Positions 1,101-36,517 of a stretch of 38,929 bases of DNA are shown here, piece after piece. The DNA comes from Acidobacteriota bacterium (GTDB taxonomy: Bacteria > Acidobacteriota > Vicinamibacteria > Vicinamibacterales > CAVVIG01), in NCBI GenBank assembly GCA_043783985.1, contig JAYVYV010000083.1:1-38929 (forward strand), in the 5' to 3' direction. A program made the translations under genes and the position numbers. Each line of letters begins with the position of its first letter. The first letter of the stretch is position 1. The notes beneath the pieces were generated by a model. It was not told the DNA's origin and searched no databases. It saw only the letters and a program-made list of their open reading frames with translations.

Positions 1101-1143
1101 GCTCTCAGCCCTCAGCTCTCAGCCGTCAGTCTTCTGTCCGTCA
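1101..1143. repeat. 7-bp tandem repeat, family C (GCYCTCA on + strand; TGAGRGC on - strand)
   Basis: gctctca gccctca gctctca gccgtca gtcttct gtccgtca. Fills the spacer between the upp stop and the upstream gene's start. Confidence 0.9.
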
Positions 1144-1764
1144 GATCGTCCCGTACAGCCTGTCGCCGAAGTCGCCGAGGCCGGGAACGATGTACTTCTG
1201 ATCGTTGAGCTTGTCGTCGACGACCGGCGTATAGATAGCCACGTGCGGATGATGCTTCTCGACCAGCGCCACACCCTCCGGCGCGGCGACAATGCAGATC
1301 ATGCGGACCACCGTTGCGCCGGCCTTCTGCAGCAGGTCCAACGCGGCGACCGCGCTGCCGCCGGTGGCGAGCATGGGATCGATCATCAGCACGTAGCTCC
1401 CGCCCAGGTTCGACGGCAGCTTCGAATAGTACTGCGACGCGACCGCGGTCATCTCGTCGCGCTGCAGCCCGATGTGTCCCACGCGCGCGCTGGGGACAAG
1501 CTCCAGCACCGCATCGAGCATCCCCAGCCCGGCGCGCAGCACCGGCACGACGACGACATCCGATCCCGCCCGGCGTCCGGCCGCGGGACCGAGCGGCGTC
1601 TCGACGGTGACGTTCTGGGGCGTCAGGTCTTTCAGTGCTTCGGCGATCAGCAGCACGCTGATGCGCGTCGCCGCGCGGCGGAAGTGCTCCGGCGTCGTGG
1701 TCCTGTCGCGCAACGTGACGAGCGCGTCATGCACCAGCGGGTGGTCGACGATGTGGACGGGCAC
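1141..1764 (-). CDS. upp: uracil phosphoribosyltransferase
   Basis: PRPP-binding motif VLMIDPMLATGGS and C-terminal YIVPGLGDFGDRLYGT. I place the start at GTG 1764 (VPVHIVDHPL..) for a canonical ~207 aa. The ORF-track extension to 2043 runs through the repeat region and overlaps the divergent gene. Confidence 0.9.
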   Translation of the reverse strand: MPVHIVDHPLVHDALVTLRDRTTTPEHFRRAATRISVLLIAEALKDLTPQNVTVETPLGPAAGRRAGSDVVVVPVLRAGLGMLDAVLELVPSARVGHIGLQRDEMTAVASQYYSKLPSNLGGSYVLMIDPMLATGGSAVAALDLLQKAGATVVRMICIVAAPEGVALVEKHHPHVAIYTPVVDDKLNDQKYIVPGLGDFGDRLYGTI

Positions 1765-1793
1765 AGGGCGACTATACAACGGGAGGCGCTGTC

Positions 1794-33202: not shown

Positions 33203-36200
33203 ATGCAGCTCGTCGCGGATCGGTTCGCGGTGCACGAAGACGGACGCGCGTTCGATCTCGCCACTGGTGCGCGCGTCACGCTCATCGTGGGAAGCGCCGG
33301 CGGCGTTTCCGAGCAGCTGCGATGGACCGAGCGCTGTTCGTCCCGGCGTGCGTTGTGTCATCGCGCGATGGCGCCGCTGGTCGACTTCGGCCTGACCGGC
33401 GAATCGTCCCGGTTCGAAGCGTGGGGGAGCGGATATCCGGGCCGGGAGCCGGAAGAATTGCGGATGGCGGATTGCGGATTGCGGAGTGGATTGAGGATTA
33501 CAGACTGCGGATTGCGGATGATCGAGCAACCTGCGGTGGCCGCGCTGGCGGAGATGTTTCAGATCGACGGTGACGCGCGCCCACGGGTGTCGTCGCTGGT
33601 GGGGCCGGCCGGAGCGGGGAAGCGCGTGGTTGTCGGTGAGCTGGCGCGGATCGCGCGCGTGAAGGGCTTTGTGCCGGTGTCGGCGCCGTTGATCGCCTCG
33701 CGACAGGCCGACCTGTGGCGCGGGCGCAGCCTGTTCGTGGTCGCCGAATCGGCAGACGAGGGATCGTGGACGGCATTTCTGAACGCCGCGCTGCAGCATG
33801 CGGAGCCGCACGTGCTGCTGCTCGTCGGGGAGGACGAATGCCGATCGATCGGCACGATCGTCGTTCCGCGGTTGCCGATCGAGGGGCTGGTCGCGGCGGT
33901 CTGGCCCTCGGTCGTGGGTAGCCCGCTGGAGCGGACGGCCCGCCGGGCAGCGGAGCGTGCGAACGGGCTGCCCGGGCGCTTCGTGCGGTTGCTGTGGCCG
34001 GAGTGGAAGGAGAGCGAGTTGCCGGAACGGGGCGCGCGTCGACGACGGCTGCCGCGGGTCGCGGAAGCGCCGACGGTGTACGGCGTCGCAGAACCGGGGG
34101 AAGCGGTGTTCGACGCTGCGCCGAATCCCTGCGCGTGGCCGGCGCCGGGAGAGCTGGCGGCGCTGCGCCGGAGAATGGATCACGCGCTGGGCGACCTCGC
34201 ACGCGGCCGTCATGCGCCCGGAGTCCGACAGCTGCGTCAGGCGGTCGGGAGTCTGGCACGGCGGGGCGCCTGGAGCGACGCCGCACGCGGCGCGCTGGCG
34301 CTGGCCGGTTCGCTGCTGCGGCGCGGGCGCACCCGCGAGGCACAGACGATCGCCGGGGAAGGACGCGATTACGCGACGCGCGCCGGTGAGGAGGCGACGC
34401 TGCTCGATCTCGCGATCCTGAGCGGCGACGCGTGGATCGACATGGGGCGGCTCGACGAGGCCGACAGCGTTCTCGGCGCGGCGCTGGCCGCGGCTCGCGC
34501 CCGGCAGGATCCCGAACGCATAGCCGCCGCGTCGGTTGGGCTCGCGCGTAGCGCGTACTGGCGCGGGGAGTACGCGGCCGCCGAGGCCATTCTCGACGCG
34601 GCGCCGGAGGTGCCGGCCCAGCGCGTGCGCCGCGTGCTGCTGACCTCGCGCATCGCGGTCGGCCGGGGCGATCTGAACCGCGCGATGCTCCTGCTGGCCA
34701 CGATCGCCGAGGTTACCGCCGCTGTCATGTGGGTGACGGCCCTCGTGCACCTGGCGGTCGGTGATCTGAACGCCGTGCAGCGCGATCTGTCCGAGACGCT
34801 GACGCTGGCGCGCGCCGCCCGCGATCCCCAACGGGTGACCCGCGCGCGGCTGCTGCGTGCCGAGGTCGAGCGGGGGAGAGGGCGGCCGGCGGCGGCGCTC
34901 GCCCAGCTGCAGCGGCTCCGGCGGTTCATGACCGCGGCGACCACGATCGTCCGGGCGCGGTGGCAGGTCGCCACGGCGCTCTCGGCACCGGAGGCCAGCC
35001 CGCAGGACACGATCGCCAAGCATGTCCAGGGGACCGGCGTCGGCGCGCTTGCGCTCTACACGGCGGTGCGCCGGACGGGTGGTCTGGGACCGGCCGGCGC
35101 CGATCCGTTCGCCGACGAGCTCGTCGCGATCCTGCGCGTCTGTCAGACGGCCACCGACGACATCGAGCCGCTCACAGCCGTCTGCGCGCGCCTGCGAAAG
35201 CATCTCCACGCGGTAGCGGTCGCGTTCGTGGCCATACGCGGCGAGCGCGTGCAGACGATCGCGTGGGACGGTGCACGGCTCGAGACCGACATCGCCCAGC
35301 GGGCCGCCGCCGCCGGCATCGCCATCGCGCCCCATCGCCAGCACGATCGGATCGAGGCCGCCGCGCCGATCGAGTACGGCGGCGACCTCGTGGGCGTGCT
35401 CTGCGCCCGTTGGACGATTGGCTCGACCTGCGACGACACGTCCCGCGCGACTCCCGTGTTGGCCATGAGCGCGGCGGCCACGGCGCCGATGCTGGCGGCC
35501 GTGATGGCGCGGGACGCGCGCGCCGACGCGGAACCGGGAGCGATCCTCGGCTCGACCCCGGTCATCGCCGAGCTGCGGCAGAACGTCGAGCGCGCCGCCG
35601 CGGCGCCGTTCGCCGTCCTGGTCGAGGGCGAAAGCGGCAGCGGTAAGGAGCTGGTCGCCCGCGCGATCCATCGCGGAAGCCCGCGCCGGCACAAACCGTT
35701 CTGCACGCTGAACTGCGCGGCGCTGCCCGAGGATCTCGTCGAGGCGGAGTTGTTCGGCCATACGCGCGGCGCCTTCACGGGCGCGATCGCCGATCGCCCC
35801 GGCGTGTTCGAAGAGGCGCACGGCGGCACGCTGTTCCTCGACGAGATCGGGGAGCTGACGCCGCGCGCCCAGGCCAAGGTGCTGCGCGTGATGCAGGACG
35901 GCGAGCTGCGCCGCGTGGGCGAGAACGTGTCGCGCCGCGTCGACGTCCGCATCGTGTCGGCGACCAACCGCGCGCTGCGGCGGGAGGTCGACGAGGGACG
36001 GTTCCGCCTGGATCTGCTGTATCGCCTGGATGTCGTCCGCATCACGGTGCCGCCTTTGCGCGATCGGCGCGAGGATGTCCCCATGCTCGCCCGGCAATTC
36101 TGGCGCGACGCGACCGCGCGCGTCGGCAGCCGCGCGACGCTGGGCGCCGCGACGCTGGCCGCGCTGGCGCGCTATGACTGGCCCGGCAACGTGCGCGAGC

Positions 36201-36460
36201 TGCAGAACGTGCTGGCCGCGCTCGCCGTGCGGGCGTCCAGCCGGGGCGTCGTGCCGGCGTCGGCGCTGCCGCCATCTTTTGCCGACTGCGGACAGGCCGA
36301 GGTGTGGACGCTCGACGAGGCGCGGCGCACGTTCGAGCACCGCTTCGTCCGGGCCGCGCTGGTGCGGACCGGCGGCCATCGCGGACGCGCGGCCGCCGAG
36401 CTCGGCGTGACGCGGCAGGGATTGACCAAGCTGATGAGTCGACTTGGAATTCAGACTTAA
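33203..36460 (+). CDS. large multidomain sigma-54-dependent transcriptional activator (N-terminal domain, P-loop-like, TPR-like helical, GAF-like, AAA+ sigma-54, Fis HTH)
   Basis: Sigma-54 AAA+ core: GESGSGKELVARAIH, ELFGHTRGAFTGA, GGTLFLDEIGEL, RVDVRIVSATN. C-terminal HTH AAAELGVTRQGLTKLMSRLGI. Upstream P-loop-like GPAGAGKR. ATG 33203 chosen because earlier ORF-track starts overlap aroC. Confidence 0.85.
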   Translation: MQLVADRFAVHEDGRAFDLATGARVTLIVGSAGGVSEQLRWTERCSSRRALCHRAMAPLVDFGLTGESSRFEAWGSGYPGREPEELRMADCGLRSGLRITDCGLRMIEQPAVAALAEMFQIDGDARPRVSSLVGPAGAGKRVVVGELARIARVKGFVPVSAPLIASRQADLWRGRSLFVVAESADEGSWTAFLNAALQHAEPHVLLLVGEDECRSIGTIVVPRLPIEGLVAAVWPSVVGSPLERTARRAAERANGLPGRFVRLLWPEWKESELPERGARRRRLPRVAEAPTVYGVAEPGEAVFDAAPNPCAWPAPGELAALRRRMDHALGDLARGRHAPGVRQLRQAVGSLARRGAWSDAARGALALAGSLLRRGRTREAQTIAGEGRDYATRAGEEATLLDLAILSGDAWIDMGRLDEADSVLGAALAAARARQDPERIAAASVGLARSAYWRGEYAAAEAILDAAPEVPAQRVRRVLLTSRIAVGRGDLNRAMLLLATIAEVTAAVMWVTALVHLAVGDLNAVQRDLSETLTLARAARDPQRVTRARLLRAEVERGRGRPAAALAQLQRLRRFMTAATTIVRARWQVATALSAPEASPQDTIAKHVQGTGVGALALYTAVRRTGGLGPAGADPFADELVAILRVCQTATDDIEPLTAVCARLRKHLHAVAVAFVAIRGERVQTIAWDGARLETDIAQRAAAAGIAIAPHRQHDRIEAAAPIEYGGDLVGVLCARWTIGSTCDDTSRATPVLAMSAAATAPMLAAVMARDARADAEPGAILGSTPVIAELRQNVERAAAAPFAVLVEGESGSGKELVARAIHRGSPRRHKPFCTLNCAALPEDLVEAELFGHTRGAFTGAIADRPGVFEEAHGGTLFLDEIGELTPRAQAKVLRVMQDGELRRVGENVSRRVDVRIVSATNRALRREVDEGRFRLDLLYRLDVVRITVPPLRDRREDVPMLARQFWRDATARVGSRATLGAATLAALARYDWPGNVRELQNVLAALAVRASSRGVVPASALPPSFADCGQAEVWTLDEARRTFEHRFVRAALVRTGGHRGRAAAELGVTRQGLTKLMSRLGIQT
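33455..33519 (+). repeat. 7-bp tandem repeat, family A, embedded in-frame in the sigma-54 activator ORF
   Basis: gaattgcg gatggcg gattgcg gattgcg gagtg gattgag gattaca gactgcg gattgcg gat, translated as ..ELRMADCGLRSGLRITDCGLRM.. Confidence 0.95.
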
Positions 36461-36517
36461 GAATGCAGCATGCAGCATTCGCGCGAAGTCCAAATTCCAA
36501 ATTCTGAATGCCGAATT
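36446..36517. repeat. family-B-related palindromic spacer between convergent genes (probable terminator region)
   Basis: ggaattcaga ... gaatgcagcatgcagcattc ... tctgaatgccgaattcc. Outer arms are ggaattc/gaattcc, with an inner imperfect palindrome. Confidence 0.6.

Follow-up and report, generated by a model that had tools for sequence, protein, structure and literature searches.

Why heptamers dominate among bacterial simple repeats, and what role the short tandemly repeated repetitive (STRR) sequences play, are questions that have stood for decades, since STRRs were described in Calothrix. We return to them with a stretch of 38,929 nt from a Vicinamibacterales bacterium of the Acidobacteriota (contig JAYVYV010000083.1; the whole stretch is called the window below), which carries tandem 7-nt units of several families, here termed heptamer arrays. 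Intergenic heptamers of Xanthomonas (GGGAATC) and Nostoc (GGGGA(C/T)T) form G-quadruplexes in vitro, and no regulatory role was found for them (Rehm et al. 2015, PMC4692102). Among the long simple sequence repeats (LSSRs) of Mrazek (2007), as that work is cited in PMC4679880, period 7 is the most abundant of the 5-11-nt periods, periods that are not multiples of 3 are excluded from coding DNA, and slippage is the proposed origin; the preference for 7 nt has been attributed to a polymerase contact or footprint of about that length (Mrazek 2007, as cited in PMC4679880 and PMC4692102). Direct repeats of the unit TAACTGA occur in marine Beggiatoaceae, Cyanobacteria and Bacteroidetes, and horizontal spread has been suspected for them (MacGregor 2015, PMC4679880).

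The arrays described here have much in common with these systems. Like those of Xanthomonas and Nostoc (PMC4692102), they are tandem 7-nt units, apparently dispersed over the genome, about 90% intergenic and nearer to the upstream than to the downstream open reading frame (ORF), which vary in length and sequence between related species and show no link to gene function. Inverted, stem-loop-forming pairs make up 70-75 cases among the ~185 repeats of a Xanthomonas genome (PMC4692102) and 73 of 241 arrays here, and the Xanthomonas-type repeats are absent from plasmids (PMC4692102) as ours are from an integrated island. Unlike the Xanthomonas and Nostoc repeats, however, our arrays comprise several unrelated unit families per genome, mostly not G-rich, their families turn over extensively at the same spacer between related genomes, divergent spacers are not depleted of single arrays, and arrays also occur in translated ORF tails and linkers. 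Several tandem, dispersed heptamer families per genome likewise characterize the cyanobacterial STRRs (Calothrix/Nostoc), whereas the arrays here belong to a different phylum and to high-GC genomes. The TAACTGA repeats resemble ours in being intergenic heptamers that contain CTGA and stop codons and in belonging to genomes where canonical ribosome-binding sites are few, but they are of a single unit type and lie mostly just upstream of starts, while here the units are many and lie nearest the upstream stop (PMC4679880). The orientation bias and the limitation of inverted pairs to gene 3' sides reported below go beyond the LSSR description. Repetitive extragenic palindromes (REPs), the bacterial interspersed mosaic elements (BIMEs) and hairpin terminators lacking a U tract also place long stem-loops after genes, and like REP elements the inverted arrays may stop transcription or protect 3' ends; their stems, however, are tandem heptamers of variable number rather than a conserved 20-40-nt palindrome, and no transposase of the REP-associated (RAYT) type was seen. 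The initial annotation of the window had stated that no function or mobility mechanism was described for such elements, which is correct, but the kind of element is already on record in the Calothrix STRRs, Xanthomonas, Nostoc and the Beggiatoaceae TAACTGA repeats (PMC4692102, PMC4679880), and the arrays here are a new lineage of it. Our literature search found no paper that links Vicinamibacterales or Vicinamibacter with tandem repeats.

The window was compared with 80 genome loci (1.30 Mb) and 80 independent metagenome loci (0.60 Mb), all Vicinamibacterales-related. The genome loci were picked through the 80 best relatives of the window's Upp among 185,579 species genomes; nearly all of these are metagenome-assembled genomes (MAGs) labelled Vicinamibacterales, Acidobacteriota or Acidobacteria, with a few others (e.g. 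Bifidobacterium, Betaproteobacteria), and in the nearest loci synteny with the window runs from position 1 to ~11,000 at ~81-87% DNA identity. A same-species search, in which metagenome contigs were scanned with the amidohydrolase, gave a best match of only 88-90% identity. Tandem repeats were detected with Tandem Repeats Finder (TRF), the null being 20 block-shuffled windows, and an array with a reverse-complement partner at most 150 nt away was counted as an inverted pair. Fourteen TRF rows in the window had period 7, compared with 30 across the 20 shuffled windows together (~1.5 each). Seven was the modal period in the window plus the genome loci (221 clusters, compared with 84 at period 6 and 94 at period 8), and the independent metagenome loci gave the same picture (91 clusters vs 26 and 40). 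Arrays of at least three copies are strongly enriched in spacers relative to coding sequence, 149 of 173 (~86%) being intergenic and 8 lying in gene 3' tails although ~83% of the DNA is called coding, and their density per spacer nucleotide is alike in divergent, co-directional and convergent spacers (0.73-0.82 arrays per kb). The units are highly diverse from genome to genome and many contain GGG; CTGA is found in 61 of 241 units (12.8 expected) and AGGG/CCCT in 41 of 241 (15.6 expected). The ACTGGGG unit of arrays at three loci (L011, L048 and L085) presumably equals that of STRR1 (CCCCAGT on the other strand). Heptanucleotide arrays of the STRR/LSSR kind are a lineage-wide property of the Vicinamibacterales (Acidobacteriota subdivision 6).

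Within the window itself, period-7 calls were made at 1100, 1794, 3259/3341, 4569, 6666/6694, 11587, 12345, 22094, 33457 and 36489, and the 11 array sites, of 3.4-9.3 copies each, hold three to four unit families in 39 kb. The three families first distinguished, A (GATTGCG/GATTGAG), B (TTTCAGA, with its complement TCTGAAA) and C (AGGGCTG and variants), are real; inspection of the sequence also bore out their stop-codon content in each orientation, and every array originally listed is present at, or within a few bases of, its position. Two memberships need correction, as the repeat at 9657-9707 has period 12 (TTCAGATTGGTG x3) rather than 7 and that at 36446-36517 belongs to family B only loosely (TCCAAAT/TCTGAAT units in an imperfect hairpin). 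The assertion that arrays occupy almost every intergenic spacer was too strong: by our own gene map a heptamer array is present in ~7 of the 21 native spacers of at least 25 nt, or 6 of the 10 within the first 12.4 kb, while four arrays are ORF-internal, three of them in C-terminal tails and one in a linker between domains, and none lies in the island.

Reverse-complement partners were found for 73 of the 241 arrays, against 17 in the control. The inverted pairs fall in 29 convergent, 37 co-directional and 3 divergent spacers and the single arrays in 26, 71 and 48 (161 sequences), two distributions that differ (Fisher P = 8e-7), and inverted pairs stand almost always 3' of genes. Because arrays as a whole span all three types of spacer, a simple terminator role cannot cover all of them, as the initial annotation had argued. 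In the window, the family-B inverted double array at 3260..3370, in which TTTCAGA-type units are followed by the complement TCTGAAA with 11-nt variants inside, occupies the convergent spacer of the amidohydrolase and hpt genes stop-to-stop, and forms on either strand a single long, AU-rich hairpin that lacks a U tract (-56 kcal/mol with z -8.0 for one strand, -54.8 kcal/mol with z -9.4 for the other). Another convergent spacer (36446..36519) holds loose family-B-like units (TCCAAAT/TCTGAAT, GAATTCAGA) in an imperfect hairpin (-33.3 kcal/mol on the minus strand, z -3.25). The same inverted architecture is seen in 8-nt units, not heptamers, at 5559..5610, where two copies of ACGGAGAC and their complement form a weaker hairpin (z -2.3 and -2.7) in the convergent spacer between deoC and the FAD-subunit gene of a xanthine-dehydrogenase-type enzyme (XDH). 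A consensus scan for canonical U-tract terminators was at chance level in 1-13 kb and had no match at the arrays, a scan for canonical promoters was likewise at chance level, and the Rfam scan of the window at gathering score returned two tRNAs only, the arrays matching no structured RNA family. Inverted arrays are most likely bidirectional terminators, or protectors or stabilisers of 3' ends.

Single arrays in co-directional spacers (n = 71) are oriented with respect to transcription. Purines predominate on their sense strand by 51:20 (P = 0.0003), G is the more frequent of G and C in 48 and C in 22, and stop codons are confined to the sense orientation in 17 and to the antisense in 5. Their median distance is 9 nt from the upstream stop and 49 nt from the next start, and G-rich arrays stand closer to the stop than C-rich ones (medians of 4 and 35 nt, P = 0.03). 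Fifteen sense units contain GAG, and none contains its complement CTC. On the window's minus strand, a family-C array, (CTGAGRG)4 in the sense direction, occupies all of the 42-nt spacer that separates the upp stop from the ATG of a citrate-synthase-like gene (1099..1140), and ~9 family-C units, C-rich in the sense direction and unstructured (z -1.1), fill that between a nucleotidyl-transferase stop and the glmM start (22082..22157). On the plus strand, the sense G-rich family-C array at 4555..4648 (AGGGCTG/AGGGCTT, then two copies of GCTGAGAG) has the rpiB stop TAG within its first degenerate unit and extends to the deoC ATG (4649), and the family-B array at 12341..12375, with TCTGAAG/TCTGAAA in the stop-bearing orientation on the sense strand, begins 6 nt past the stop of a response-regulator gene. 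We rejected the idea that single arrays are specially unstructured RNA, as they fold with the same energies as shuffled versions of themselves (z ~0), and also the idea that C-rich arrays are Rho terminators, as the spacers downstream of them are no longer than those of G-rich arrays (P = 0.89) and only the distance from the stop codon differs. C-rich unstructured RNA within operons would load Rho, and may for that reason be selected against. A reading of families B and C as HutP/TRAP-like NAG-N4 sites was dropped, the pattern being too permissive and the units too diverse.

Divergent spacers present a different setting. The family-A array at 1794..1854 (~8.6 units, one of them of 5 nt) separates upp on the minus strand from the amidohydrolase gene on the plus strand, and this spacer has conserved -10-like boxes, TATAGT for upp and TACAAT for the amidohydrolase, ~10 nt from the start codons (box regions 1770-1782 and 1850-1855 in the window). 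Across loci L001-L160 and the window, well-defined ATG starts are preceded by a TAnnAT-like signal at -15 to -10, and by a Shine-Dalgarno (SD)-like motif in 28% only, a pattern which suggests that leaderless mRNAs are frequent in this lineage. The array between the two boxes is probably untranscribed promoter-upstream DNA, and since such boxes stand next to the starts, arrays in divergent spacers are probably untranscribed in general, so that a role at the RNA level would not be universal.

Units within an array bear the mark of growth in place. Neighbouring units differ by 1.25 mismatches compared with 1.78 +/- 0.06 when their order is permuted (0 of 500 permutations as low), and this greater likeness of adjacent units is a signature of local tandem duplication. 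The family-A array at 33455..33519 (plus strand), which lies in frame within a sigma-54-activator-like ORF (33203-36460) and codes the linker ELRMADCGLRSGLRITDCGLRM between its N-terminal domain and an AAA_16 domain, gives a case history: a distant orthologue (L163) has only the two-unit proto-repeat GGATTGCAGATTG, coding D-R-G-L-Q-I-V (then E-R-P), another (L161) has six units coding ADCGLRIAECGLRI, an addition of 21 nt, that is three units or seven codons, and the window has still more units plus a 5-nt unit with the frame kept. As judged from these orthologues, the array can be traced to the in-frame growth of an ancestral GLRI-coding proto-repeat. A second in-frame example is the C-terminal tail of the XDH large subunit (6655..6725, minus strand), where a family-A array (6655-6695) abuts a family-C array (6696-6725); the tail reads ...GDGKAKGSGPRAEGSNPHSAVRNPQYGTHR* and the end of the ORF overlaps the FAD-subunit start in the sequence ATGA. 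The motif PPWEGGDG was found in 13 genomes, and in 12 of them the ORF runs from it through any array to the ATGA overlap; translational coupling between the two subunits seems to have been kept whatever repeat was inserted. The C-terminal tail of the large subunit (6644-6760 and orthologous loci) is hypervariable, with 4-37 residues past PPWEGGDG. The XDH read-through and the frame kept in the activator gene indicate that arrays inside ORFs are tolerated only if frame-preserving and stop-free, a rule with which the earlier remark that family A is stop-free in both orientations fits well; two of the three family-A arrays sit in ORFs. The other two ORF-internal arrays are a derivative and a variant of family B. 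That at 9657..9707 (minus strand), the period-12 repeat mentioned above, codes the tail TNLKSTLNTNLKSEF of a TetR protein together with its TGA stop and has an orthologous counterpart in the closest relative, L001. That at 11585..11617 (plus strand, CTGAAGT x4) codes the tail of a histidine kinase, whose ORF reads through because the unit that would place an in-frame TGA is CAGAAGT, and terminates in GTGATGA, overlapping the start of the response-regulator gene. We considered phase-variable contingency loci and rejected them: arrays mostly follow stops and lie beside housekeeping genes (upp, hpt, rpiB, deoC, glmM, XDH), and those inside ORFs are frame-preserved tails or linkers.

Comparison of orthologous spacers shows that the same junction can carry differing unit families, or none, in different genomes. 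The spacer upstream of upp holds an array in roughly a third of loci, with ~15 different units among them. A family-B hairpin stands at the same convergent amidohydrolase/hpt junction in the window and in six other loci (L002, L004, L006, L007, L075 and L095), and the rpiB/deoC junction has a family-C array in the window, L002 and L004. L001, on the other hand, is without most arrays, and its amidohydrolase/hpt spacer is 4 nt long (TGA-AATC-TCA), with roughly one unit. Orthologous arrays vary in unit number between species, and from these junctions arrays appear to persist for long periods at some orthologous sites, with turnover. Two further features were noted at the amidohydrolase/hpt spacer. 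L003 and L010 have there another REP-like family (GGGTCCGAAAGGACCCGGCCTACA) in place of the heptamer hairpin, and in L075 (1000-1340) and L095 (1530-1750) the loop of the hairpin contains a shared insert of ~170 nt (GGCGGCGGATTT[G/A]CCGCGCAG...GTCTTTGAATCTACAATCTG), which may be a small mobile element or a nested RNA gene.

Arrays of the same families are found in viral contigs. Three-unit 21-mers of family B have exact matches in 15 stretches of IMG/VR viral contigs, those of family A in 48 and those of family C in 14, and the contigs concerned contain 349 period-7 clusters in 0.72 Mb, compared with 76 of period 6 and 104 of period 8. They usually hold many arrays of several families, up to ~1 per kb (e.g. 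L208:1-13338, L195, L175, L215 and L166), a density that is biased because these contigs (L164-L240) were chosen for having an array. Five contigs were compared with PHROGs: hallmark virion or Mu-type transposition genes, coding for terminase, portal, major head protein or Mu-like transposase, were present in four, and the fifth (L173) matched ParB-like proteins only. In 55 phage loci the placement and purine bias of the arrays are as in the Vicinamibacterales loci. The other repeats of L208 were sought in the Vicinamibacterales loci and gave no informative link.

We think it probable, if well short of certain, that the arrays are heptamer repeats grown by slippage at permissive junctions, that selection has since filtered them, and that it has put inverted pairs to use as hairpins. 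Arrays gain and lose 7-nt units in place by tandem duplication, most likely through copying slippage, and are found where constraint is weakest, that is just past stops, in promoter-upstream DNA of divergent spacers, in C-terminal tails and in inter-domain linkers. A duplication spanning or following a stop codon would be the least harmful place for the products of slippage, and within ORFs only frame-preserving, stop-free versions are seen. Selection would further act on arrangement: an array paired with its reverse complement folds into a long hairpin that lacks a U tract and has a putative role as terminator or 3'-end protector, and single arrays inside transcription units are retained mainly in the purine/G-rich orientation, which would avoid C-rich Rho-loading RNA and often supplies TGA in all three frames.

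Several points weigh against this account. Pure slippage predicts neither the excess of CTGA nor the reuse of units within a genome (7.8% of pairs, against 1.05% between loci; see below), and similar units (ACTGGGG, GGGGATT and others containing CTGA) recur in distant phyla, as judged from the units quoted in PMC4692102 and PMC4679880. In the phage contig L208 an array stands right after the stop codon at almost every structural-gene junction, and arrays at the junctions of a compact phage module fit a function more easily than neutral filler. The terminator and anti-Rho roles are ones that we infer from arrangement and composition. As to the data, the closest relatives are only ~85% identical at the DNA level, so that comparisons of unit number run between species; the P-values are optimistic because orthologous arrays of related genomes were counted as independent; and gene starts were taken from a home-made caller.

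The main rival explanation, which we hold to be unlikely, gives the arrays a cis-regulatory role: a factor specific to the lineage would read them, as RNA where the spacer is transcribed. Candidates for this factor would be ribosomal protein S1, a cold-shock protein, a CsrA-like protein or Rho, and in a lineage with few SD sequences the arrays would serve to order termination, re-initiation and translation from one cistron to the next, with phages using the same code. The bias in orientation and the short distance from the stop codon upstream speak for such a reader, as do GAG in 15 sense units with CTC in none, the SD-like motifs ahead of only 28% of well-defined starts, and the several C-type arrays that run exactly from stop to start and thereby supply TGA/TAG and GAGGG/GAGAG. 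The phages add to this, with the same placement and purine bias in 55 loci and with arrays at almost every junction of L208, where structural-gene starts have no visible SD; a like proposal has been made for the TAACTGA repeats (PMC4679880). What tells against it is that orthologous spacers carry many different units or none, the ~15 units upstream of upp arguing against one sequence-specific reader; one in three single arrays falls in a divergent spacer, where the -10-like boxes beside starts mark it as probably untranscribed, and L001 dispenses with most arrays beside the same essential genes.

The initial annotation saw in each family dispersed copies of an element longer than one unit, which would spread by copy-and-paste, through mobility, templated synthesis or gene conversion to new junctions, and possibly be carried between genomes by phages. 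The matches on which it relied are arithmetically correct (27/30 for 6661-6690 vs 33490-33519, and 17/20 for the second pair), but they support it only weakly in permutations that keep units in register: the 27/30 match, off-consensus units included, has P = 0.016 under unit-order permutation, or ~0.05 after three comparisons, and the other claimed higher-order match, the A1-A3 similarity, is not significant (P = 0.48). An argument for dispersal is that an identical unit is shared by 7.8% of different-spacer pairs within one locus and by 1.05% between loci (~7-fold), and the exact 21-mers of all three families in array-rich phage contigs point the same way. Yet an ancestral coding motif gave rise in place to one family-A array, orthologous sites have kept arrays over long periods, adjacent units resemble one another most, neither a transposase nor a reverse transcriptase accompanies the arrays in the window, and the few flanks inspected, which were not compared systematically, have no obvious sequence in common and neither terminal inverted repeats nor target-site duplications. 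We therefore regard dispersal of longer elements as decidedly doubtful.

Equally speculative, and in our estimation improbable, is that the arrays, far from being mutational debris, form a system shared by hosts and phages, in which a factor recognises unstructured, 7-nt-periodic tracts right after stops. The factor might be the ribosome (through S1), Rho or a dedicated protein, and would organise termination, re-initiation or the exclusion of Rho in SD-poor lineages rich in leaderless mRNAs, such as the Vicinamibacterales. If this were true, tailed phages would bear such arrays between nearly all their structural genes, exploit the system and spread unit families, which would account for the recurrence of units within genomes and across phyla.

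Selection for non-B structure in DNA or RNA, with family C (GGG every 7 nt) forming G-quadruplexes that act on transcription or translation, is very improbable. Two family-C arrays (4569-4615 and 22094-22153) do have at least four G3 tracts with 4-nt loops and fit the G3-L1-7 pattern (PMC4692102), and many units of related genomes contain GGG. Families A and B, however, are without G3 tracts, AGGG/CCCT is less enriched than CTGA, the G-rich strand is the sense strand in three arrays of the window and the antisense in one, and Rehm et al. saw no regulatory role for the quadruplex-forming heptamers (PMC4692102). Last, an assembly or sequencing artefact, for which only the general point speaks that short tandem repeats can be mis-assembled in copy number, can be set aside, because orthologous junctions with conserved flanks carry arrays in dozens of independent assemblies of differing projects and sequencing methods, MAGs with 1-4 Mb contigs among them, and reading frames are intact through the arrays.

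The genes of the window (GC 67.6%) are ordinary housekeeping and regulatory genes by Pfam content. Besides the citrate-synthase-like gene, upp, the amidohydrolase gene, hpt, rpiB, deoC, the three-subunit XDH, the TetR gene and the histidine kinase and response regulator, they include, further on, glmM, a def-fmt-rsmB cluster, aroC, the sigma-54-activator-like protein and an extracytoplasmic function (ECF) sigma factor. An integrated island of ~8.2 kb and lower GC (12377..20586) is bordered on one side by tRNA-Gly (20513-20586), which its integrase gene (19658-20497) adjoins, and on the other by attL, whose 25 nt (12377-12401) repeat the 3' end of tRNA-Gly exactly and which directly follows the array at 12341..12375. 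No heptamer array was found in the island (12377-20586) despite its long non-coding stretches. The C-terminal part of an S8 subtilase ORF in the island (17760-17940) contains an 18-nt (6-codon) tandem repeat, ATCGTCTGGGGCACCAAT, of ~8 copies in three blocks; it is a coding repeat of the ordinary in-frame sort and has no relation to the heptamers. Between tRNA-Gly and glmM (20605-20699) stands a 24-nt tandem repeat, CGCTCGGCTGAAGCCTTCGCGCTA x4, with related copies elsewhere in L001, L002, L004, L005, L013, L081 and L163; these copies make up a REP-like family of their own, marked by a small GGCTNAAGCC hairpin. A small ORF of the PD-(D/E)XK nuclease family (PF13366; 31423-31734) stands alone between def and aroC in a gap of 520 nt that is otherwise array-free.

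In practical terms, the arrays make gene callers extend ORFs and so give rise to spurious low-complexity protein tails in databases. For the biology of the lineage, they provide regularities that can be tested: inverted arrays are nearly all at gene 3' ends, single arrays stand at the stop with a purine-rich sense strand, arrays are absorbed in frame into tails and linkers, and foreign DNA such as the island is array-free while some phages are packed with arrays. The Vicinamibacterales are abundant soil bacteria with many related MAGs, which makes them a dense comparative system for the long-standing questions of why heptamers prevail among bacterial simple repeats and what STRRs do.

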